DNA from: Asterionella formosa
Taxonomy: Eukaryota
Assembly: GCA_002256025.1 (NCBI GenBank)
Contig: NKIB01015391.1
Location: forward strand, 1-36,167
Direction: 5' to 3'
DNA length: 36,167 nt
The notes under the pieces are model-generated. The model did not search any database and was not told the DNA's origin. It saw only the letters and a program-made list of their open reading frames with translations. This document shows positions 1,651 to 34,628 of the stretch, one piece after another. Each line of letters begins with the position of its first letter. Within the stretch, counting starts at the first letter, position 1. A program made the translations under genes and the position numbers.

Positions 1651-2620
1651 TCAGGTGGGTAGAGGTGGGATACAACCGGAGTCTTTCACATTGGAGTATG
1701 TAGTGGTGCTATTGATGACTGAGACTTGTTGTTTGGCCATTGCTGGGAGGTGCCAGAGGTATTCTTTCCAGGAGTCACTCTTCCAACGAAGGCAGTATTG
1801 GATGATGTCTTTTGGCCTGTGGGCCAAGAACACAAGCGCCTACTCATGCAGAGTGATTTGAGTTTTTGCTAGGTCAAGGGGGTCATTGACTTTGTGTACA
1901 ATGCTTCCTAAGTCTTTCATCTTTTCTCATATTTCCAGGTCATTGATGAGTTTTACTGTGGAGGTTAGATGACAATCCACCACGGTGTATATACAGAGAG
2001 GGTGTAGTGGGGGTATGTGATGGTCTTTTGCTTGGACAAAAATTCGAAGGATAGAGAGTATTGGGCAACGTTCAGGATGGTTGTCATCTCTTACTAGGTT
2101 GCGAGTTTGATCAACTTCTGAATTTTTTGATGTTGCCAGGTTATTTCAATTTTGGTGATATTGAAAGGTGATAGTATGATGACTTGTGTTGCAGAGATTG
2201 TGTGTTCATTGGCAATAAAGAAACGGAAATCTTGTGCTAAGAATGCCTTTGGCTCATTGTCAATGTTGTAAGCTATTCTGCCCCTGTTTGTATGTGTTGA
2301 GTATTGGCAATAATCAGACAAGCATAAACCGGTGTACAGGGCCAGGGTTACTAGCAAATCAGCCAAGGATGCGGTTAGGCTGTTTGGGTTGGATTCTTTT
2401 TGTGCTTGTTTGCAGAGGAAATTTATCATTTCTTTGGTAAAAGGGTTTGCTTTTCGGGGCCGGTTTTGCCATCGAGCGATTTCCTCAAGGATTTTTTGCA
2501 ATTCATAGCAAAGTCCTGTGTGTTGAGAGATGATCTGAGGATCTAGGAGAATTTTTGTGTTGTCAACAATTAACTGTCGGAAATGGTTTAGTAACTGATG
2601 GGCAACATGACGGGTGTATC
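1651..2620 (-). pseudogene. Tyrosine recombinase (YR) domain of the retroelement, disrupted
   Basis: ALYTGLCLSDYCQ (GxRxSEY box, R->C at 2322-2324), WQHQK, CPILSILRI, HSA*VGACVL (HxxR box, stop at 1844-1846), IQYCLRWKSDSWKEYLW (W and catalytic Tyr, Tyr codon at 1759-1761). Confidence 0.85.
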
Positions 2621-2777
2621 CGTCAATTGTGTCTCATTTCACCAATGTAAATGGATTGTGTTTCTGAGGGCAACAAGGTGTTGGGCATAGACAGCATCTG
2701 GATGTTGCATTGGCATTGGGAGTATGTTGTCAGGTAAGGGTCAATCTGTTTTTGTCTGCAATATTTCATGTAATGTT

Positions 2778-4250
2778 TTACATGTGACTGAGCTGTCCTG
2801 GCTGAATTTTGGTTGTGGGAATAATTACAGATCCAGTAGAGAGTGTGGAGTTCATGAGTTTGAGTAACTCGGGACTCGGTCGAAAGCACCTCAAACCTTG
2901 GATCTTGGGAATCTGTTGTTTGAGGGATTGGGTAGTAGCAAAATGAAAATGTGAGTCAAGTTGAAAATGGGTGTGATCAAGTGTTTGTGAGATTTTGTCA
3001 GCTAAAACCATTTGAATTTTGAGGTTGCTACTTGGTCAAGCCAATCTTGGTGTGAGTTGGTCTCTGTGGAGATCCACGATTGGTCTTTTTCCTGCAGAAG
3101 TGTGTTGTACTCATCTGAGGTAAGAATATGTTTGAAATGCTTGCTTATTGTATTGTGGAGTGTGCTCATGAATGCAATGAACAGGAATGCTCCCCATCAG
3201 CAACATTGAGTTGCATTGACAAGGGTGCCTGCCAACTGGCTGGCTTCCAGGAGTGTGAAGCTTTTTCTTTGGGGGCCCCATGTAGTGGTTAGAGCTGTGT
3301 GTATTGCAACCCTTTTGTCAATGGGTAGACTCACTGTCATTGTCCTTGTGTTAACAATTTTTCCCAGGATGTTTCTGCAGTAGGAAATCTCTGTTTTGTG
3401 CTGGAGTTTATCCATGTCTGTGGCATCAGGTTTCAAGGTGTGATCTGGAAGACCAAGTACCAAATTTTTTGCTGTGATAGATGCTCTGGTGGCCCTGAGT
3501 ATGTGATCAATGGATGCTGCTGCATAGATTTTGTCGTCGACACGCATGGCAAAGTTTGGTGGGGAAACTCTGTTTTGGTCAGTAAGTTTTACAGGGTTGA
3601 ATTTGTCTTTGGTTGCTTCTGTGAAAGTGATGGATTTGTATTCTGGATCTGGGCTAACTTTTACTTTGTTCATGTATGTTTGGTGGGTTGGGATGTCAAC
3701 ATTCGTGTTGAGTAAATTGGATGCAATTTGACAGGTGGCTCTTGAGAATGGATCCCAATTTGGTGGGCTGGTTGTGTCACCAAAAGTTTGGGCAACTGCA
3801 GTATGTTTGACTGTGAAAATGTTCTCATGTGCATCATCTTTGTTCATGGCTTTGGTGACCAGGGTTGGGTTAGAGTCAATGGTTTTGTGGTTGCCATAGG
3901 TGCGATATTCCTTGACTTGTTGGGCTGAGAAATGAGCATTGATTTGGGCTGGGCATCCGAATGTAAGAATGCAGGCTATGTGTTGGTATGTGGGTTCATC
4001 AACTTTTCCCTTCAGTCGGGGCAAGATGATAGCTGTGCTGCAATAGGGGAGTCCAAGAAGGGTTCCTCCAACATATCAAATACATGCAGCAATCCAAAGT
4101 GAAGAAGGAGTGCTGACCTCATTTTGGTGCAATGAGGTGGAATAGCTTGTTGGGTGGTCCAGTTTGGGTCATGGGTTTGGAGTGGGCTAAAATTCACTGT
4201 GGATAATTCCACAATTTTTCGGCAGAGGTGTTTGACTCTTCGGTCCATGG
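2778..4250 (-). pseudogene. Reverse transcriptase/RNase H of the retroelement, disrupted and apparently internally deleted
   Basis: QTFGDTTSPPNWDPFSRA (RT motif B-like), FAMRVDD (YxDD-like), ILGKIVNTRTMTVSLPIDKR, FTLLEASQLAGTL (thumb) and VLADKISQ (RH C-terminal motif). RT motif A and the first RH aspartate block are not visible. Confidence 0.8.
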
Positions 4251-4501
4251 ACCAGAGGGCTTTGTAGTCATCCTTTTTCAGGTACTATGTGCACCTGATA
4301 TTTTTTGTATGGGACTAGTTTGCGCATGGTCCATGGTGAATGAGTTATTATTGCATTGTGAGGGTTTGTAGAATTGGAGGAGCCTTGCTTGTTTTTGGTG
4401 TTGTGGCATATTATTAGAGAGTTCTACAAATAAGATCATGGTGTGTTGTATGTTTAACTGTTTTTCTAGCTTACTCACATCTGTTGGATCCAATCCATGG
4501 T

Positions 4502-6997
4502 TTAATTTTTTATGTCTCTCACCCAAGTGATGGTGGAGTCATTTTCAACCCAACTGACGAATTTTTTGGCTTCGGCTATGGTGCCGATTTCAGACGGTTT
4601 GGTGGGGTGATGGTATCGGCAGTTTGTTTGATGGCATACTTGGTGCTCAGTTATGTGTCCAAAACACACAAACTCTTTGACATCATTTGATCCTGGGACT
4701 ACCAAAGGATTATGGTCCTGTACTTTCCAATTAGCCAGAACTGGGTGGACTAAACTGATGTAAGTTACTGTTGAGATGGGATTTTCAGCTCTTGGTTTCT
4801 TTGTTTGTGTGGGAATGTTTTTGTCGACATCTTTGTCAGTTACTTTTTGGCGATCTTTGGTTCTTTGTTTGTTTGTTTGCTGGTCATAACTCTTGAGAGA
4901 CTTGTTTGAATCTGTAGAGCTTGTTTTGTTCTGTGTGGGGCTTTGTTCTATGAAAAGCCTGCTGCACAACAATGAGTTAAAAGTTGGTGCACTGCATTGT
5001 ATGTCTGCATTGATATTGTTCACTGTGCAACAACTGTTGTAATAATCATCAAAGGCAAGGTGGTTGTCATAAATGGGTTGACCATGAAGAATAGCGTGAC
5101 AGATTTCTGGTTGTGGCTGATGTCTGAAACAGCTGCAACCGTGGTTGCAGCTACCTGGAGAATGTAAGGTACAGCTTTGGGTATGGCTTGAAAGCTGGTG
5201 CGTCTGGGGGCACTGGCGGTAACATGGTAAGTTGTATCAACCAAGCTTGACAAAATGTTTGTCAATGAAGACACCAGTGAGTTTGGAATTGTTGAAGCTG
5301 TTCTGACAAGTGTTTGGAGTAAGATTAAAAAGTTCATCAATGTTTTTGCAACTGATTTGATGGAGTCATCTCCCAAATTTGTGTATTGAATGTTTGTGGT
5401 TGACTTTGCTTGGTGGTGATCAGCTTCATTTGCTTGTGCATCCAAAGTGAGCCTTGTTTGGTGTTCCATTAGTTTTTGGTAACCTGCAGCGTGATCTGCA
5501 TGAGGGCATGCCATGTGGTATAGTGTGATTGGACCATTGAGGATGTCTTTGGGTGATTGTGCTTGTACTAACTCATCTAAAGTTGCAATTGAGCAGGCTT
5601 TCAGTTTCCCCACCATGGTGTTGTTTATAGCATGGATTGCAAGTTCAGAAATTTGCCAGGGACTCGTTAGGTCAGCTCCTGCGCTCTGGAGGGACTTTGT
5701 TGTTTGAGAAAGGAGGTGTCGAAATTGTACGACGGCTGCTGTGGTGGAGGTGGTGTTGAGGACCTCGCAGAATTGGGATGGGGTTGAGTGGAGCATATGT
5801 TATAAAATACCCTCAATTGTTTGGGTTACAAGGATAGTTGTCTGCTCGGCGGCGGAATCCAAAGACATTATATGTTGCAAGCCTGTCCAGCTGGTTTTGG
5901 ATGTTTGCTGGTTGATTTTGGTATTGTTGGCCAAAAAGAGCTTCAGTAGGGAATGGGGTAGTCATGGGGGTGCTGTTTGGCATAGGGGTGTGATTCGGGT
6001 GGAATAGTAGTTGTTGTGGAGTATCTGCCAGCTGGTAGTAGTGGAGGTTTGCCAAGGCTTGCTGGTACGCTATTTTATGGTGATCATCATGGTTTGCGGT
6101 ATGATAAACATTGTTGACTTGGGGATTGAGGGGGATGGGTATTCCAGTGAGCCTCGGGGGTGGTTGGTGGCAGTTGTTGGTGTTGGTCTCAGTGTAATGT
6201 AATGGTTGTGGGTTGTTTTGTTGCTGGGGGACGTGGTTGGAAGGGTGGAGTTGATTTGTTGGAGTGACTGTTGGGGGAGGTTCTGGTGATGTGTATGTGT
6301 TTGCTGTTGGATAGGATGTTTGGTACGGGAATCCTCTGTGTTGAAAAAGTGGATCTTCCTGCACCAACTTTTGGGTTGGGGTTGCTGGTGTTTGGAAGGT
6401 CCGTTGGAATGAATATGGGTCAACCGGTGCTGGCTGGAAAGACAGAGCAGGAAAAATTAAGGAAACTGATGGAGGAGGTAGATTCACAAATTAAGGTTAG
6501 ATGCAGATTTGATCAACAAAGGGTTAGGGAAAGCGATTAAAAAAAATGTCTGCTTCCAATGGAGGTGAGAATTAAACGACATACTTTACAGCAGAGGCGC
6601 TTGTGGGTGGAAACTGTGGATCTTGATTTTAATGCTTGGAATAATGATCAATCCGTAGTTGTTATCATGGGTGATGACAAGGATGGCTTCGGCATGACGA
6701 AGGGATTCGGTTTCTTCTTCAAGTGTTGGAGCTTGGAAAAAAGATGCAAAAGGGTGGTCCAGGTTGTAGGTTCCATCAGGGTGTCTTGGTGGAGTCTCGG
6801 TTGGTTGGTAGGATGAATTGACAAGGCTTGTTTGTAGGGTAGCTTTTTGAGCTGCAGTGAGGTTGGATGTGTGAAATAAGTTGTGGAGCGTCTGGTAACA
6901 TTTGAGCATTGGGTTTTGGTGGTGGCTGGTTGCTGGTGGCGGTGGCTGCTGTGGTGGCTGCTGTGGCAACGAGCTGATTGGCTGGTGGAAGCATCAT
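4502..6997 (-). pseudogene. ORF1/gag-like region of the retroelement, frameshifted into several pieces
   Basis: Abutting minus-strand ORFs (6586-6969, 5813-6487, 5020-5796, 4502-5023). The N-terminal part is Pro/Gln/Thr-rich, and a C-terminal C-x9-C-x4-C-x3-H motif (CFGHITEHQVCHQTNCRYHH) lies just before the RT. Confidence 0.65.
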
Positions 6998-14026: not shown

Positions 14027-15679
14027 CTACGAAAGTCTACTTATAATCGGCTCGCCGCCACCTTTGACATCCTTGACAGTGAAGCCCAATTCAGTAATTC
14101 TCCCACGCAAGGAATCTGCAAGATCCCAATCCTGGGCTTCTTTGGCTGCAGTCCGTTGGCCTACCAAGTCCAGCACTTCATATGGAATAGCAGTCGATTC
14201 ATTGCCTTCTTTTGCTTGTGATTCGGTCAGTGGAACGTTATAAAAAATGCCAAGTACTTGATCCATTTGGTCAAGGGCGTCTTGAATGGCTTGGAGTCCC
14301 AGAATATCCACAGCAACGCCCTTATTGGCTTCCTTTAAAATGTTTTCTGCCTCTTTGATCAGAGCAAAGAATGAAGCCGCCGCTCGAGGCATAGACAAGT
14401 CATCGAGTAGGGCTGTGTCGAAACTCTTTAGTTCACCTGGTACTACAGTGGTTGCAATATCAGAATCTCCCTCCATTGCAAGGCCAGTTGCTGCTTTCGC
14501 CAACGTGTCTGCGAGCCCAGTCTTGACCTTGTCCATTCGCTTCAGAGCATTTTTGCTTGCCTCCATTGCTTGATCAGTGAAGCTAAGTGGATTCCGGTAA
14601 TGCGAACTTACCACCAAGTATCGATAGGCCCTAACATCGTCAGGTTTTGGACACGCATCCCTCAAAGTGAGAAAATTGCCTGTAGATTTGCTCATCTTTT
14701 CTCCCCCAATGTTGACAAATCCATTATGAATCCAACAATTGCAGAATGTTTTCCCCGAAAAGCCTTCAGATTGAGCAATTTCATTTTCATGGTGAGGAAA
14801 TTTGAGGTCAATCCCACCGCAATGAATGTCAATGGTATCACCGAGGAAAACCCTTGCCATGGCCGAACATTCCAAATGCCATCCTGGACGGCCATACCCT
14901 AATGGCGTATCCCAAGAACAGTCTGGCCGGTCCAGTCCCTCTTTGTATGCCTTCCACAAGCAAAAGTCTTGAAAATGAGCTTTCCCCGATGCCTCGTCCG
15001 TTCGTTCTTGCGGTTCCATTTCGTCCACCGTCAGTTGTATCAATTGCGTTCCATAGTTCGGTTGATTCCGTGTATTAAAGTACCAACTCCCATCTGTAGT
15101 TTGGTATGCTAACTCATTCTTGACCAATCCCTGTACCAAATCCACCATATCTTGAATGTGATTTGTGGCTCTGGGATAATGCTGTGCCGGAATAATATTA
15201 AGTGCTGCCACATCTTGTAAAAATACTTGTTCGTATTGCTTCGTTAATGTTTGCACATCAACTCCACGTTCCTTGCATCGTGCTAAAATCTTATCATCCA
15301 CATCCGTCAAGTTGCATACATGTTGAACTGAATATCCAAAGTACAGCAATACACGTTTCACTACATCATATGTTAAGAATGCTCGAAAGTTCCCCACGTG
15401 AGCTGAGTCGTAAATGGTAGGTCCACAAGTGTACATTTTAATATGATTTGGTTCCAAGGGGCACAATGGTTCTTTGGAACGTGACTTGGAGTTGTATAAT
15501 ACCAATGTGGGGAGAATTGGTTCTTGTTGTTGAGTGGCGGTCATGGAAAGGCGCGTGCGTGGTGACACTGTTCGTTGTAACAATCGAGAAGGAGACACTA
15601 GAATCCATGCATCCGTACTGACAGTCAGGAGGACTGCCATAATACTCGCCGTTGCTATTATCGAGTGCTTGTATACCAT
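14027..15679 (-). CDS. cysS: Cysteinyl-tRNA synthetase, organellar (bipartite presequence); alternative in-frame ATGs at 15718 and 15640
   Basis: MYTCGPTIYDSAHVGNFR (HIGH-like), NLTDVDDKI, DFCLWK, GRPGWHLECS, DLKFPHHENEIAQS, KMSKS and anticodon-domain WDLADSLR. N-terminal hydrophobic signal ending TDA|W plus an Arg/Ser/Thr transit peptide. Confidence 0.96.
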   Translation of the reverse strand: MVYKHSIIATASIMAVLLTVSTDAWILVSPSRLLQRTVSPRTRLSMTATQQQEPILPTLVLYNSKSRSKEPLCPLEPNHIKMYTCGPTIYDSAHVGNFRAFLTYDVVKRVLLYFGYSVQHVCNLTDVDDKILARCKERGVDVQTLTKQYEQVFLQDVAALNIIPAQHYPRATNHIQDMVDLVQGLVKNELAYQTTDGSWYFNTRNQPNYGTQLIQLTVDEMEPQERTDEASGKAHFQDFCLWKAYKEGLDRPDCSWDTPLGYGRPGWHLECSAMARVFLGDTIDIHCGGIDLKFPHHENEIAQSEGFSGKTFCNCWIHNGFVNIGGEKMSKSTGNFLTLRDACPKPDDVRAYRYLVVSSHYRNPLSFTDQAMEASKNALKRMDKVKTGLADTLAKAATGLAMEGDSDIATTVVPGELKSFDTALLDDLSMPRAAASFFALIKEAENILKEANKGVAVDILGLQAIQDALDQMDQVLGIFYNVPLTESQAKEGNESTAIPYEVLDLVGQRTAAKEAQDWDLADSLRGRITELGFTVKDVKGGGEPIISRLS

Positions 15680-15779
15680 GATGATGACGGTGTTTGTGTA
15701 TTGCTTGTTGTTTGTCATCAATTGTGATGAACAAGCAAAGGTAAAATAATGAAATAGTAAGAAGTACTAAATGTGACGA

Positions 15780-16210: not shown

Positions 16211-16535
16211 CACATCCCAATACAATTTGTACATGGCATTATTCTTACTGCATTGAAATCAGCGGTTACAGTTTGAGCTTTTGAACCAGCATTGTGGTTG
16301 TTGGTTGAATCCATTCAAGGCAATCCCTCAGAAGTCACATCACGCTCTTGCTCTACTTGTTTTCTAAAACCCACGAAACAGCGAGGTAAGAACAATGAAA
16401 GAAGAAGGAAGCGAGACGAGGCAACTGCTCTGGTTGGCATGCCCTTCGTAGAACGCCGTGAAGTTAGTACCAGCAGCTACAGAAGCTTTCACCACTCACC
16501 ACTAATCTACCGTCATTTCACCCACTCATCCCCAG

Positions 16536-19273
16536 ATGGCGGCCAAAATGCTAGGAAAGGACGCCGGAGGCTCCGACTCCCGCTTCTTTACCACCCAGAA
16601 GAAGGGCGAAATGCACGAACTGCGGCTGGAGTTGCACTCAACAGACCGCACCACCAAGGTCGACGCCGTGAAGAAGGTCATTGCTTCCATGACGGTAGGC
16701 AAGGACGTTAGCATGCTCTTCACGGACGTCTTGAACTGCGTGCAGACGGGGAACATTGAACTCAAGAAGCTAGTGTACTTGTATCTGATTAATTACGCAA
16801 AGTCGCAGCCTGAACTGACTCTCTTGGCCGTCAATACCTTTGTCAAGGACGCATCAGACCCAAACCCCCTCATTCGCGCCTTGGCCGTGCGGACCATGGG
16901 ATGCATCCGCGTTGACCGCATCACGGAGTACTTGTGCGAACCGCTCAGTAGGGCACTCCGCGACGAAGATCCATACGTGCGCAAGACAGCAGCAGTATGT
17001 GTCGCGAAGTTGTATGACATTGCTCCGGATTTGGTGCAAGAGAGAGGCTTTTTGGAAGTATTGCATGACTTGATCAGCGACTCGAATCCATCCGTGGTTG
17101 CCAATGGTGTGGCGGCTCTGTCAGAAATCGCAGAAACATCGGGACGCGATGTTATGAAGATTTCGGCCAGTGTATTGCAGAAGTTGTTGGCTGCCTTGAA
17201 CGAATGCACTGAGTGGGGACAAGTTTTTATTTTGGATAGTTTGGCCAAGTACACGCCAGCGGATGGACGTGAAGCAGAAGGGATCATTGAACGTGTCACT
17301 CCTCGTTTGCAGCACGCTAATTCTGCGGTTGTAATGTCGGCCGTCAAGGTCATTCTTTCCTACATGGACTTTCTAGGAAATCAGAATTCTGATGCTATTC
17401 GCAACTTGACCAGAAAGCTCGCTCCCCCTTTGGTGACACTGTTGAATTCGGAACCGGAGATTCAATACGTTGCGCTTAGAAACATTAACTTGATTGTTCA
17501 GAAGCGACCCAACATTTTGGAAAATGAAATTAAGGTCTTTTTCTGTAAATACAATGATCCAATCTACGTAAAGATGGAAAAGTTGGAGATCATTATCAAG
17601 CTGGTCAGCGAGAAAAACATTGATCAAGTATTACTAGAGTTGAAGGAGTACGCGACGGAAGTGGATGTTGACTTTGTACGGAAGTCGGTGTCAGCCATTG
17701 GTCGCTGCGCTGTCAAGTTGGAGCGGGCTGCTGAACGATGCATTGGGGTGCTCTTGGAATTGATTCAGACAAAAGTCAATTATGTTGTACAAGAGTCGGT
17801 TATTGTCATTAAGGACATTTTCCGCCGTTACCCCAATAGGTACGAGAGTATCATAGCCACACTTTGTGATAATTTGGATACGCTTGATGAACCTCTCGCC
17901 AAGGCCAGTATGATTTGGATCATTGGAGAATATGCAGAGCGCATCGATAATGCCGACGAGTTGCTCGATACCTTTTTGGAAACATTTGAAGAAGAGGACC
18001 CTGCTGTTCAGCTTCAGCTGTTGACGGCGACTGTCAAGTGCTTTTTGAAAAATCCAGAAGATACCCAAGACATGGTTCAGCGCGTCTTGGACATGGCAAC
18101 GGAAGAAAGTGACAATCCCGATTTGCGTGATCGTGGATTCATTTACTGGCGACTCCTATCGACTGATCCAGAAGCCGCCAAGATTGTAGTGTTGGGTGAC
18201 AAACCCGTAATTGAAGATGATACTTTTCGGTTGGACCCGTCCTTGTTGACTGTTTTGATTGGGCAGATTGCGACCTTGAGCAGCGTGTACCATAAGCCTC
18301 CAGAGGCGTTTGTAGTTCGGGGACCAAAAGGAACTGGAGGCTTTGCTGAAGAAGAAGAGGAGGAAGAGGAAGCGGGTATGTATTAGGCAAAGTGGATTGT
18401 CTGGGCGATTTTATCGATTACTCACGTAGCATTTTCTTCACTACTTTCACAGAATATGAAGACGAGAACGATGTTGGTGGAGATCTCTTGGATATGGGCG
18501 GTTTGAGTATGCAAAATGCTAGCTCTGATGTTGCAGATATTGTTCTCGCTCAAGTCTGCTCTGCTGAAAAGTCTGGTGGAATCGACATTTATGCTGGTTT
18601 CCGCCAGGTGAATGGAACCATCATGATGGAACTCGAATTCAGCAATGTCTCGTCCCAAGTTGCAGTTTCAACTTTGGCCATTCAGCTTAACAAAAATGCT
18701 TTTGGACTCTCTCCTGCCAACCAACAAATTTCCTTTACTCCTCCCATCTCTGTTGGTAATCGCGCTCGCAACTCCGTTGAGTTGGTGGTAACGCCCAACA
18801 TGTTGGCTCCAGCTGCATCTGGTCAACCTGCATCTCCTCAAGTTCAAGTGGCTATCAAGAACATGGCGACCAACGGAGTCTTTTACTTTGCCGCCAATTT
18901 CAACTTTGAAGCCTTGTTCACTCCTGATGGTGCTTTGGATCGATCTGCTTTTATTGAAGCTTGGAAATCGATTGATGACCGTAAGGAACTCTACGGAACT
19001 GTCTCGGACCTGCCTCCCGCTTCGACTGACATTGACTTAGTCCAGGCCAAGTTTAAAATTTCAAATGTGTTTTTTATTGCTCGTCGTCCTGTGCCAAATG
19101 CCGAAGGGCAAGAAGTCGTGTACTTTTCCATGCGCACTGTCACAGGCATGGACTTTCTGGCAGAATTAACTTTCAAGGCCGGTGTCAATGCCTGCAAGAT
19201 TTGCCTAAAGACTGAGTCTGCATCTTACGGTCTCTTGGCCAAGATGGCATTGGAGACATTGTTGCGAGAATAA
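16536..19273 (+). CDS. AP1B1: AP-1/AP-2 adaptor complex beta subunit (beta-adaptin); exons 16536-18375 and 18453-19273 (886 aa)
   Basis: Adaptin-N trunk ([45 protein letters not shown]), acidic hinge with DLLDM, and C-terminal appendage domains. A phase-1 intron joins the ORFs. Confidence 0.96.
18376..18452 (+). other. Spliceosomal intron (77 bp) in the beta-adaptin gene
   Basis: G|GTATGT donor, CTCAC at 18421, pyrimidine tract and CAG| acceptor; G+AA rebuilds a Glu codon in frame. Confidence 0.9.
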
Positions 19274-31092: not shown

Positions 31093-32535
31093 TTACCACC
31101 ATGTAACGTAGGAAATCGCTGCGTCAACAACAGATACGAAAGTAAAAACTGCGATTGCAGGAATTAGAAGCAAGATCATTACAATGGCGTGTTGGTTTAA
31201 ATACCATTCTGATAGCTTCTGAGGTAGGTCAACCCATAGAGACACGCCTTCGTCTGTGTAGGTTTCTTCGCCAATGCCAAACATACGTGAATAAACACGA
31301 TGAGGAGCCTGAGAAAGGTGGGACAGGTATTGGAAGCTTATCGGGGTTTTATATCCTCCAATTATGAGGTGACCTGAGTCTTGGAGAACGACATAGCTAG
31401 ATGCCATTATGCCACTGACCACAATTGTACCTGCGCCTGTGAACGGAGCGTAGACCCCTTGACGAAGCACCTTCGCAATCTCCTCGACCATCACATATTT
31501 CCCAGCGGCAGTCTCGAGGTGATCTCCGACTACAACATGTGATGCAGGAATAAAACCACGTTCAATCACCTTGACCAGGTGATTCCCGGTGATCTCCAGT
31601 CCAGTCGGAAGGAGCTGAAGGAACTCGGCCTCCACAGAGTGATGCTTGTGTCCAAACGAATATACCTTACTGTACGTACCAGCAGCAACCAGAACTTCGT
31701 CGTCGAGGGCAAGGTCTTTCATCTTTGTAGTTCCCTTGTTCTTGACTTCGACCGATGTCTCACTCGAAAAACAAGATTTGAACGAAGGAGCGCTCTGAAC
31801 CCCACTTTGGCCAGTCGTGCAGTATCCGGGAGCAAAAACTGCGTTTGTATCGGACCGAGTGCACACTCCAGTACAGCAGTCACCATATGCGCTACATTTT
31901 TGACCTGTTGCCAGACAAGCCGTAGTGGTTGAACCGGAACCGCCGCTGGAAGGGCCACTGTAGGTAATGGAGGTGCCCTGTGCGACCGATTGTAGAATGA
32001 AGTTGGAAACGTACCACTCCGACGATCCATAGCTGTAAACAGTTGACACAACTGTAGTAACATCCATATCGAGTGATTTTCCGGCCTGGGGAACATAGAG
32101 GGTTCCTGTAATCTCAGTCTTGACACTGCGACTGTTGTGACATAAACCACCGACGTTGATCATTTGGCAATATTGTGCAACCTGCACGTCTCCGTCTGAA
32201 GTGCTCAGGGCGTCTCCCATATCGGCTCCTGCGTTGTCTGCTAGTCGGATCAAAAATCCTCGCATGATATCTTGAGTGGCGACAAGCCTGATGGTGTGTC
32301 TCACTCCAGCGGTGAATTTAAATGCAGTATCTTCGTAGACCTGGTGACTGTCGATGTATAGCTTAAAGCCAGCACTGGAAATGCGTCCTCCACCAGAGTT
32401 TCGAGTTGATGCATGGGCTCCTTGAGCAACAGCTTGTCGTCCGGATAAACATGATTGGGTTCCTTGAGGAAACGCCGACACCATGTATGGTACGAGAGCG
32501 ACAAGGGAGATGACTTGCACCAGATAGGAGAGCAT
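31093..32535 (-). CDS. Secretory-pathway Hint (Hedgehog/intein, Hog-type) autoprocessing protein, 480 aa: signal peptide, Reeler-like domain, knottin-like 6-Cys module, Hint + SRR-like region, TM helix
   Basis: Hint: S|CFS (Cys255), KMKDLALDDEVL, LEITGNHLV (TxxH), VVVGDHL, GVYAPFTGAGTIVVSGIMASSY. SRR-like: YLSHLSQAPHR. Reeler-like: FPQG..SC, MRGFLIRL, C..GLCHNSRSVK. ATG at 32535 (the ORF-track start at 32601 is TTG). Confidence 0.9.
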   Translation of the reverse strand: MLSYLVQVISLVALVPYMVSAFPQGTQSCLSGRQAVAQGAHASTRNSGGGRISSAGFKLYIDSHQVYEDTAFKFTAGVRHTIRLVATQDIMRGFLIRLADNAGADMGDALSTSDGDVQVAQYCQMINVGGLCHNSRSVKTEITGTLYVPQAGKSLDMDVTTVVSTVYSYGSSEWYVSNFILQSVAQGTSITYSGPSSGGSGSTTTACLATGQKCSAYGDCCTGVCTRSDTNAVFAPGYCTTGQSGVQSAPSFKSCFSSETSVEVKNKGTTKMKDLALDDEVLVAAGTYSKVYSFGHKHHSVEAEFLQLLPTGLEITGNHLVKVIERGFIPASHVVVGDHLETAAGKYVMVEEIAKVLRQGVYAPFTGAGTIVVSGIMASSYVVLQDSGHLIIGGYKTPISFQYLSHLSQAPHRVYSRMFGIGEETYTDEGVSLWVDLPQKLSEWYLNQHAIVMILLLIPAIAVFTFVSVVDAAISYVTWW

Positions 32536-33971
32536 GATGAATTTCGAATGAAGGAGAATATGAGAGGATGAAGGTGCACCAGGCTGAAATTCGAAACTCA
32601 AAATCAGGCCTATGAAAAAGTGGTGCCGATTGAATGAGTAGCATTACTATCTGACGCGTTATGCTTGAAACTCCGACCTCTCAAGCTGGCAATCTTGGCA
32701 AGAATATTTCGCTATTTGACTTACAGAAGAAATTGTGCGATTCACATAAGTAAAACTCATTCTACCCTCTAAGTGACCTGAAATCCAACGGAGATATAAG
32801 TATTCAGATCATATATATCCAGTCAGTTGAAATAGTTAGCCACTGTGCAGTCTTAATAAACATTTGAATTTTTCAACAAAATAATAAGTTTGCGTGCGCA
32901 CTAAGACACAGCAACGGTAATTGGCGGGCTCCTTCCTGGCCAATAATTTTTTGTTACAGCTTTTTGAAAGACTAAAAAAGGGATTTCTCGTAGAATCCTA
33001 CAAACATGCTCGCTAATGTGTGTAGCATCCGGCAGTTCAGTTTTGAACTTAATGTGACGGTGATCACGTAGCGCGCTGGCCTGGCTGAACGATCGTTATT
33101 GAAATTGTCCATGTACGTAGTCGACAAATTCCTTTCCACGTGAAATTTAGAATATATAGGAAAATACCAGTACCGCAATACAAAAGTGCCGAGAATGCAC
33201 CTGCAAAGTAGATCGGCAGGTGACCTAATAGTCATTGCCTCGCTTCTTGTAGATACAAAATATCGCCAATTGGAAATTCCCTTTGTACAGGTGAAATACG
33301 TATCAGTCAGAGTACGGGTACTAGGTACTCCTTCCTACCTGTAAACAATTTGTCCTTGTACACATTTTTGATGTACACGACACAACTACCGTACTGTACC
33401 CAAGCTCGATTTTCAGTTCGATATCGACCTGAAAACCGCCGGCGTGTCGACGTTCACATCGTCACTATGTGGTAATTACATTGGTTGTAAATACCGGTCG
33501 TAGCTGAGTTAAGCGTCGTTGGTTGTTGGGCTACCGATTTTTTTTGTACACCGAAGGTAAGGCCGGTGCTAACCGTGGACCAAAACCAAAACCCCAAGAC
33601 AAAATTTTGGTTTGGTTTTTGGCTTGCTTCGGTCAGACTGACAAAAAAACGATCCTAACGGTTCTTGGGAAAACTTATGTAAACGCTGTCAGTCACCCAT
33701 CGACTGTGTCGTATCTAGGACGACAAAAATATGATAAAATTTTTTGGAATTCACATGCACCATGTTGTGCTTACATTGTTTACAGCTCTTAATTTCGTTT
33801 CGTCACTGCAATCAAGAGAAGGAAATGAGAGATGATGATAGTTCGATTGTTTTTCGACTAACGGTAGAAATAGTACAGCTTTACTTACTAGCGAATATGA
33901 CATAAAGTCACATGATGATTCATGAAAAACACATGACGAAGCTAGTAAATTCTGGTTCCACTATACTGTTC

Positions 33972-34628
33972 NNNNNNNNNNNNNNNNNNNNNNNNNNNNN
34001 NNNNNNNNNNNNNNNNNNNNNNNNNNNNNNNNNNNNNNNNNNNNNNNNNNNNNNNNNNNNNNNNNNNNNNNNNNNNNNNNNNNNNNNNNNNNNNNNNNNN
34101 NNNNNNNNNNNNNNNNNNNNNNNNNNNNNNNNNNNNNNNNNNNNNNNNNNNNNNNNNNNNNNNNNNNNNNNNNNNNNNNNNNNNNNNNNNNNNNNNNNNN
34201 NNNNNNNNNNNNNNNNNNNNNNNNNNNNNNNNNNNNNNNNNNNNNNNNNNNNNNNNNNNNNNNNNNNNNNNNNNNNNNNNNNNNNNNNNNNNNNNNNNNN
34301 NNNNNNNNNNNNNNNNNNNNNNNNNNNNNNNNNNNNNNNNNNNNNNNNNNNNNNNNNNNNNNNNNNNNNNNNNNNNNNNNNNNNNNNNNNNNNNNNNNNN
34401 NNNNNNNNNNNNNNNNNNNNNNNNNNNNNNNNNNNNNNNNNNNNNNNNNNNNNNNNNNNNNNNNNNNNNNNNNNNNNNNNNNNNNNNNNNNNNNNNNNNN
34501 NNNNNNNNNNNNNNNNNNNNNNNNNNNNNNNNNNNNNNNNNNNNNNNNNNNNNNNNNNNNNNNNNNNNNNNNNNNNNNNNNNNNNNNNNNNNNNNNNNNN
34601 NNNNNNNNNNNNNNNNNNNNNNNNNNNN
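33972..34628. other. Assembly gap (657 N)
   Basis: Run of N. Confidence 1.

Follow-up and report, generated by a model that had tools for sequence, protein, structure and literature searches.

Here we describe a gene of Asterionella formosa that probably encodes a non-Hedgehog "Hog" precursor, a protein that would cut itself between Ser254 and Cys255 and so free an ectodomain made of a Reeler-type domain and a knottin-like module. The gene lies on the minus strand of contig NKIB01015391.1 (NCBI GenBank assembly GCA_002256025.1), and the window analyzed is the stretch from position 1 to 36,167 of that contig, 36,167 nucleotides. From N- to C-terminus, the 480-amino acid (aa) product is laid out as a signal peptide, a Reeler-type domain, a Ser/Gly linker, a knottin-like six-cysteine module, a Hedgehog-type Hint domain, helices resembling the sterol recognition region (SRR) of Hedgehog, and one transmembrane (TM) helix (Table 1). 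The protein is one member of a larger family of TM-anchored Hog proteins in diatom-type data. An initial annotation, made from the sequence alone, had proposed a self-cleaving precursor of this kind. It overlooked that the Asp at the general-base position of Hedgehog is replaced by His, and that the protein belongs to a TM-anchored Hog family with many cargos.

Hint domain, catalytic positions and membrane anchor

The initial annotation had expected the Hint family PF01079 in a profile search, and Pfam returned it at 75 bits against a cut-off of 29.7 (E 8.2e-21), over aa 252-445 and profile positions 10-211 of 213. From 31 family sequences, AlphaFold gave a model of aa 245-480 with a mean predicted local distance difference test (pLDDT) score of 93.2. 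The closest folds to this model in Foldseek are Hedgehog-type: the fly Hedgehog Hint D46H mutant (6tyy, E 4.8e-11) and the wild-type domain (1at0, E 3.7e-9), both with a TM-score of 0.79. Inteins and bacterial intein-like (BIL) domains follow at ranks 3-50, and the PDB sequence relatives of the Hint half at E<=0.01 are Hedgehog chains only. We rejected an intein, as a C-terminal splice junction and a C-extein are both missing and the Hedgehog Hint domain ranks first.

Both the nucleophilic Cys and the block-B TxxH of the initial annotation lie exactly where it had placed them, as Cys255 and TGNH, and both fall in conserved columns of the family. Thr316 and His319 of the latter align with fly T326 and H329 in a pairwise alignment. 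Across 31 family sequences, which are 33-61% identical to the 480-aa protein except for one 98%-identical copy (P0002), Cys255, His296, and His319 are invariant; position 316 is Thr or Ser across the family. The general-base Asp of Hedgehog is replaced by His296 in the alignment, and the motif SFGH, with His at the base position, occurs in 32/32 of the Hint-bearing family members that we examined, a set drawn from word-seeded searches rather than a full survey. Passages of PMC9163320 report that D303 of the fly enzyme is required for cholesterol transfer and dispensable for thiol-induced cleavage, and that an engineered D303H enzyme keeps its structure and activity and accepts non-native sterols far better. 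Since that enzyme is active, Hog chemistry may be kept with His296. The Hog-type GVYAPxTxxGTIVV motif that had been described corresponds to GVYAPFTGAGTIVV, which can be aligned with the "motif J" region of Hedgehog.

Beyond this motif, the model adds an extra β-hairpin (aa 389-400) ahead of the post-Hint helices. The SRR-like helix named in the initial annotation is seen in the model as predicted helices at aa 401-408, 410-419, and 433-446. The first of these carry H406-x4-P411-x-R413, and H-x4-P-x-R is found in 28/32 family members. By its spacing, this motif may be equivalent to the HPR motif of human SHH, which passages of PMC7906309 describe as critical in the first SRR helix. The helices are followed directly by a hydrophobic segment (aa 451-469, Kyte-Doolittle hydropathy 2.85), modeled within a single helix at pLDDT >90. 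A C-terminal TM segment, as had been claimed, is present in 32/32 family members in the same position, which would place the active site at the membrane. A glycosylphosphatidylinositol (GPI) signal in place of a TM helix was considered and rejected. The 30-residue helix is conserved, and more distant members carry tails of 17-45 residues after it; those tails that were inspected are rich in basic residues.

Cargo modules and the wider family

The protein appears to begin with a signal peptide, as had been noted from its VSA-FP junction: the N-terminal hydrophobic segment spans aa 1-19 (hydropathy 1.95), and an A-FP/YP junction is common to the relatives. What follows is not the Hedgehog N-domain (Hedge), which is absent from a Pfam scan of the 480-aa protein, but a part with the Reeler fold. 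The Reeler-like domain of the initial annotation holds up by relatives and by fold, though not by a direct profile match, as Pfam Reeler (PF02014) does not match the 480-aa protein at E<=1. When aa 22-250 served as the query of a full HMMER scan, 323 relatives came up at E<=0.001, of which the best 150 were listed. Relatives that match Reeler were found at E 1e-10 to 1e-16, and among the 49 scanned of these 150, eight lie above the 21-bit cut-off of PF02014 and 12 match it at E<=0.01. Structure comparison of the model likewise places the N-terminal part in the Reeler fold. Nothing meaningful emerged among PDB sequences with a profile of the N-domain family (the best match, NDC80 at E 0.051, is taken as chance), and an ESM Atlas search gave no usable match. 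Two cysteines are strongly conserved in the Reeler-type family, C29 (75/79 sequences) and C123 (79/79), along with H41 and H133 (76/79 each) and R97 and K139 (75/79 each).

Among the query and its best 150 of 323 matches, seven of 151 Reeler-like proteins carry a Hint domain. Among the 144 without one, a strongly hydrophobic tail closes 37 proteins and linkers rich in Pro/Thr/Ser occur in 76, so the Reeler domain seems usually to be a tethered cell-surface module.

A flexible segment, SGPSSGGSGSTTT (aa 193-205), leads from the Reeler-type domain to six cysteines at positions 207, 214, 220, 221, 225, and 239. Their spacing, C-x6-C-x5-CC-x3-C-x13-C, matches the inhibitor cystine knot (ICK) consensus. 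In a PDB sequence search with the module at E<=10, every one of the six matches is a knottin venom peptide (lowest E 0.0042). Pfam knottin families match the 480-aa protein below their cut-offs (Toxin_27 at E 0.21 and Toxin_29 at E 0.96), the relative P0031 reaches 22.3 bits for Toxin_29 against a cut-off of 25, and the model has a pLDDT of only 69-78 here. The knottin module of the initial annotation therefore stands as regards its six cysteines, their ICK spacing, and its PDB matches, and stays below the family cut-offs in Pfam; because the assignment is based on Cys spacing and sub-threshold matches, "knottin-like" is reasonable but not proven. The matches carry no implication of toxicity.

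The ICK-like Cys pattern appears in 10 of the 151 N-domain proteins (the query and its best 150 matches). The Reeler and knottin-like pair also occurs without Hog, in the relatives P0020, P0029, P0030, P0032, and P0033, where the next part is either a second Cys-rich module or a lengthy Pro/Thr-rich stalk whose end is hydrophobic. The two cargo modules thus form an evolutionary unit in their own right.

The Hog-TM half is common to many proteins with other N-terminal parts, and the cargos vary widely: trypsin, SASA esterase, M11 peptidase, PF22807, GH114, a pectate-lyase-type β-helix, aspartic protease, and PBP-like domains. One such relative with another cargo is assigned by its source to the diatom Synedropsis. 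In a tree of 52 Hog domains, made after removal of eight near-identical cluster members, the 480-aa protein and three close relatives form one clade (support 97/69). Its sister (98/94) is a pair of proteins whose Cys-rich cargo is of another kind, and the Reeler clade falls within a group of 34 proteins that is well supported and otherwise lacks Reeler. The Reeler label needs at least three changes on well-supported branches of the tree. Given this placement and these changes, the Hog-TM unit behaves as a portable cassette.

Proposed processing and alternatives

We propose the following pathway, in which the steps after translation are predicted from the conserved residues and the model. The signal peptide would be removed after VSA21, and the protein would enter the endoplasmic reticulum as a type-I membrane protein held by its C-terminal helix, with the Hint domain on the lumenal side. 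Cys255, aided by Thr316 and His319, would then turn the Ser254-Cys255 peptide bond into a thioester by an N-to-S acyl shift, and a second nucleophile activated by His296 would resolve it. The ectodomain (aa 22-254) would be freed while the Hog-TM part remains in the membrane; by coordinates it measures 233 aa, the size that had been estimated. Both self-cleavage and a lipid adduct are suggested by the conserved residues. We favor a membrane sterol or similar alcohol as the second nucleophile, in which case the cargo would be lipid-tethered on the cell surface. This transfer takes roughly half of our confidence in self-cleavage, and transfer to a sterol in particular is plausible. Since fly D303 is dispensable for thiol cleavage, the retention of His296 in 32/32 members argues that a second, activated nucleophile matters. 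Three features lean toward transfer to a membrane sterol or similar alcohol: a base-position His that is invariant, the SRR-like motif, and the adjoining TM helix. The cargo appears to be a secreted-type module, which fits a domain normally tethered at the cell surface. Its role is possibly in adhesion, defense, or signaling, as conjectured in the initial annotation.

Several points weigh against this pathway. The profile alignment to fly and human Hedgehog ends at the end of the Hint fold, before the SRR-like region, and because it stops there the SRR-like homology rests on the short motif and the extent of the Pfam match. Downstream of the motif J region, Ser380 occupies the position of fly Hedgehog Cys400 (C143), and the residue before Cys255, which is Gly in Hedgehog, is Ser here and variable and often bulky in the family. 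His296 could equally activate water. We found no cleavage, adduct, transcript, or localization data for this protein or its family members. Finally, a Phe directly after the signal-peptide cut is a trait of the diatom plastid-targeting junction. The Phe after the predicted cut resembles such a junction, so another compartment is possible.

If the activated nucleophile were water, the thioester would simply be hydrolyzed, and the TM-anchored Hog would be an autocatalytic shedding device that sends soluble, unmodified Reeler and knottin-like cargo into the medium or cell wall. We regard this as possible, though not likely. The catalytic evidence for it is identical to that for lipid transfer, and the missing second Hedgehog Cys and the position of the SRR-like region outside the Hedgehog alignment would both suit it. 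Many family cargos are hydrolases that could work as soluble enzymes. In passages of Buerglin 2008 (PMC2362128), moreover, the adduct of non-Hedgehog Hog proteins is unidentified, and the region received the name ARR, for adduct recognition region, on that account. Yet the Hedgehog Asp is dispensable for plain cleavage in the passages of PMC9163320 noted above, and here a His is kept in 32/32 members; nor do the conserved H-x4-P-x-R helix and the TM helix have an obvious use in plain hydrolysis.

The Phe also bears on where the product goes. We consider it very unlikely that the product is bound for the plastid or the periplastidial space. The VSA-FP junction, with the first acidic residue only at D62, would be compatible with that route. 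However, the residues after the Phe are not a transit peptide but a folded, conserved Reeler domain, in which C29 and H41 are retained as given above and the pLDDT is 85-88. The aromatic residue is absent in other family members, such as P0005, and the family's disulfide-rich modules and its cargos of wall-active enzymes fit the secretory route.

Least probable to us is an unprocessed type-I membrane protein in which the Hint-like domain is a structural stalk displaying the Reeler and knottin-like head. Catalytically dead Hint-like domains do occur in other lineages. Cleavage of the 480-aa protein is itself something that we infer, and according to passages of Buerglin 2008 (PMC2362128) some protist Hog-like sequences have lost conserved residues. 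Against this stands the invariance of the nucleophilic Cys, the TxxH His, and His296 in 31 sequences that are mostly 33-61% identical, which is hard to explain without catalysis.

Self-cleavage with transfer to a sterol or similar alcohol would bear on a question that passages of Buerglin 2008 (PMC2362128) leave open since the naming of the domain, namely what non-Hedgehog Hog domains attach, if anything. The abstract of PMC7242414 calls covalent sterol attachment unique to animal Hedgehog ligands. The family described here offers a test case for sterylation by a non-animal Hog: a compact, apparently intronless gene, all residues of the first step, a conserved SRR-like motif, and a built-in membrane anchor. 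In addition, His296 is a natural version of the D46H base swap, which widens sterol tolerance in the fly enzyme according to passages of PMC9163320. Hint genes are numerous in some diatoms, with counts above 290 for Pleurosigma and of 112 for Seminavis given without further study in the passages of PMC12803021, and passages of PMC3879662 report Hint-domain transcripts during Seminavis sex. The limited literature that we searched, main texts only, contained no account of a Reeler or knottin cargo on Hog, of a TM-anchored Hog, or of a natural base-position His in such proteins.

More tentatively, the diatom TM-anchored Hog with its natural His base might be a general machine that attaches membrane sterols to secreted proteins. 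We hold this broader proposal to be doubtful for now. If true, the sterylated cargos would include Reeler and knottin-like modules, proteases, esterases, and glycosidases; the system would do with sterols what GPI anchoring does with GPI, and it would be the first case of protein sterylation beyond animal Hedgehog ligands. A sterol-linked cargo would change the view of how algal surface proteins are anchored and would give enzymologists a natural sterylation domain of broad specificity. A cargo that is merely hydrolyzed off would still reveal an unreported autocatalytic shedding system for many secreted diatom enzymes.

Genomic surroundings and comparison with known systems

The gene itself is intact, as had been claimed: 480 codons open with ATG and run uninterrupted, with an in-frame stop upstream (the stop-to-stop frame starts at 32643). 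In a protein similarity search, relatives align across 99-100% of this open reading frame (ORF), which agrees with the intronless reading of the initial annotation. The full-length relatives include one that is 99% identical and two that are 53-54% identical, and an identical protein is encoded on a separate 1959-base contig. The ORF is not a chance one, because full-length relatives exist and an identical protein is recorded elsewhere. Contigs of about 2 kb with the identical or a near-identical protein are only a hint of expression. Within the window, tblastn found no second copy of the gene.

Table 1 Features of the 480-aa protein and their positions in the window.
Feature	Residues (aa)	Positions	Strand	Basis
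Complete coding sequence, uninterrupted	480 aa + stop	31093..32535	minus	ORF list, translation
Predicted signal peptide, cut inferred after VSA	1-21	32473..32535	minus	Hydrophobic segment and junction of relatives
Reeler-type β-sandwich domain	22-185	31981..32472	minus	Fold match aligned over aa 28-185; relatives
Ser/Gly/Thr-rich linker	186-206	31918..31980	minus	Sequence; lower model pLDDT of 73-78
6-Cys module, knottin/ICK-like	207-239	31819..31917	minus	Cys positions
Hint fold	255-400	31336..31773	minus	Pfam PF01079; AlphaFold model and Foldseek
Cys255, predicted nucleophile; scissile bond Ser254-Cys255	255	31771..31773	minus	Aligned to fly Hedgehog Cys258
His296, Hedgehog general-base position (fly D303/D46)	296	31648..31650	minus	Pairwise alignments to 6td6_B and 6tyy_A
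TGNH, block-B TxxH	316-319	31579..31590	minus	Aligned to fly T326..H329
GVYAPFTGAGTIVV, Hog "motif J" region	360-373	31417..31458	minus	Alignment to fly Hedgehog
SRR/ARR-like helical region	401-446	31198..31335	minus	Model helices and H-x4-P-x-R motif
C-terminal transmembrane helix, core 451-469	450-479	31099..31188	minus	Hydrophobicity and model

The surrounding DNA is eukaryotic nuclear, with genes for a SOUL protein, cysteinyl-tRNA synthetase, and beta-adaptin. The cysteinyl-tRNA synthetase (14027-15766, minus strand) is extended at its N-terminus by about 100 residues, a hydrophobic segment among them, which suggests an organelle-targeted form. The beta-adaptin gene (16506-19273, plus strand) is read in two overlapping frames, one with Adaptin_N (16506-18386) and one with the appendage domain (18350-19273), which implies a short intron or frame change near 18350-18386. 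On the minus strand at 2094-6993 lies a run of long stop-to-stop ORFs of 179-292 aa with a high content of Gln, Pro, Thr, and His. The GC skew there is unusually high (0.2-0.5), and the five ORFs scanned had no Pfam match at E<=1e-3. The region could represent a degenerate mobile element, or else a large gene of low complexity. At 33972-34628 the assembly has a gap of 657 N, which accounts for an apparent dip in GC content at 34-35 kb and for spurious ORFs there.

Each part of the protein can be compared with a known counterpart. The knottin-like module has the same Cys framework as ICK peptides of spiders and scorpions, and unlike them it is embedded in a larger algal protein. The Reeler-type domain is about 15-17% identical to the F-spondin reeler (PDB 3COO, 2ZOT, and 2ZOU; PF02014), relative to which its family has conserved residues of its own, His41, His133, Arg97, and Lys139. 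It is also fused to a Hog domain, a combination for which the literature searched gave no description. Inteins and BIL domains have the Hint fold in common with this protein, together with the first-step chemistry of Cys1 and TxxH. In contrast to inteins, the sequence after the Hint domain consists of Hog-type helices and a TM helix rather than a C-extein.

In protists, algae, mosses, and nematodes, non-Hedgehog Hog proteins likewise join Hog to a secreted N-terminal part that bears conserved Cys. Passages of Buerglin 2008 (PMC2362128) report the change of the motif J Cys to Ser also in moss, red algae, and dinoflagellates, and distinct known N-domains only in GmGIN1 and Hoglet. Diatoms and stramenopiles are absent from these passages, and "transmembrane" appears in them once, in another context. 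Red-algal genes joining Kelch and Hog are known, and lipid modification is suspected for non-Hedgehog Hog proteins (PMC13353863). Compared with the proteins in Buerglin 2008, the one described here has a recognizable Reeler and knottin-like cargo, and its family has many enzyme cargos.

The closest comparison is with Hedgehog Hog itself (fly Hh-C, 1AT0 and 6TYY; human SHH-C). The fold is alike (TM-score 0.79) at 28% identity, and the proteins have in common PF01079, the Cys at the start of the domain, TxxH, and the motif J-type GVYAPxTxxGTIVV. Helices after the Hint domain bear H-x4-P-x-R, which resembles the HPR motif of SHH. Unlike Hedgehog, this protein has no Hedge signaling domain and has the Reeler and knottin-like cargo in its place; Cys400 has become Ser380, and Ser rather than Gly precedes the Cys. 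Its base-position Asp is naturally His, and the PDB entry that it matches best, 6TYY, is the engineered D46H mutant. It also differs from Hedgehog in the extra β-hairpin at aa 389-400 and in a true C-terminal TM helix, which is found in all 32 members.

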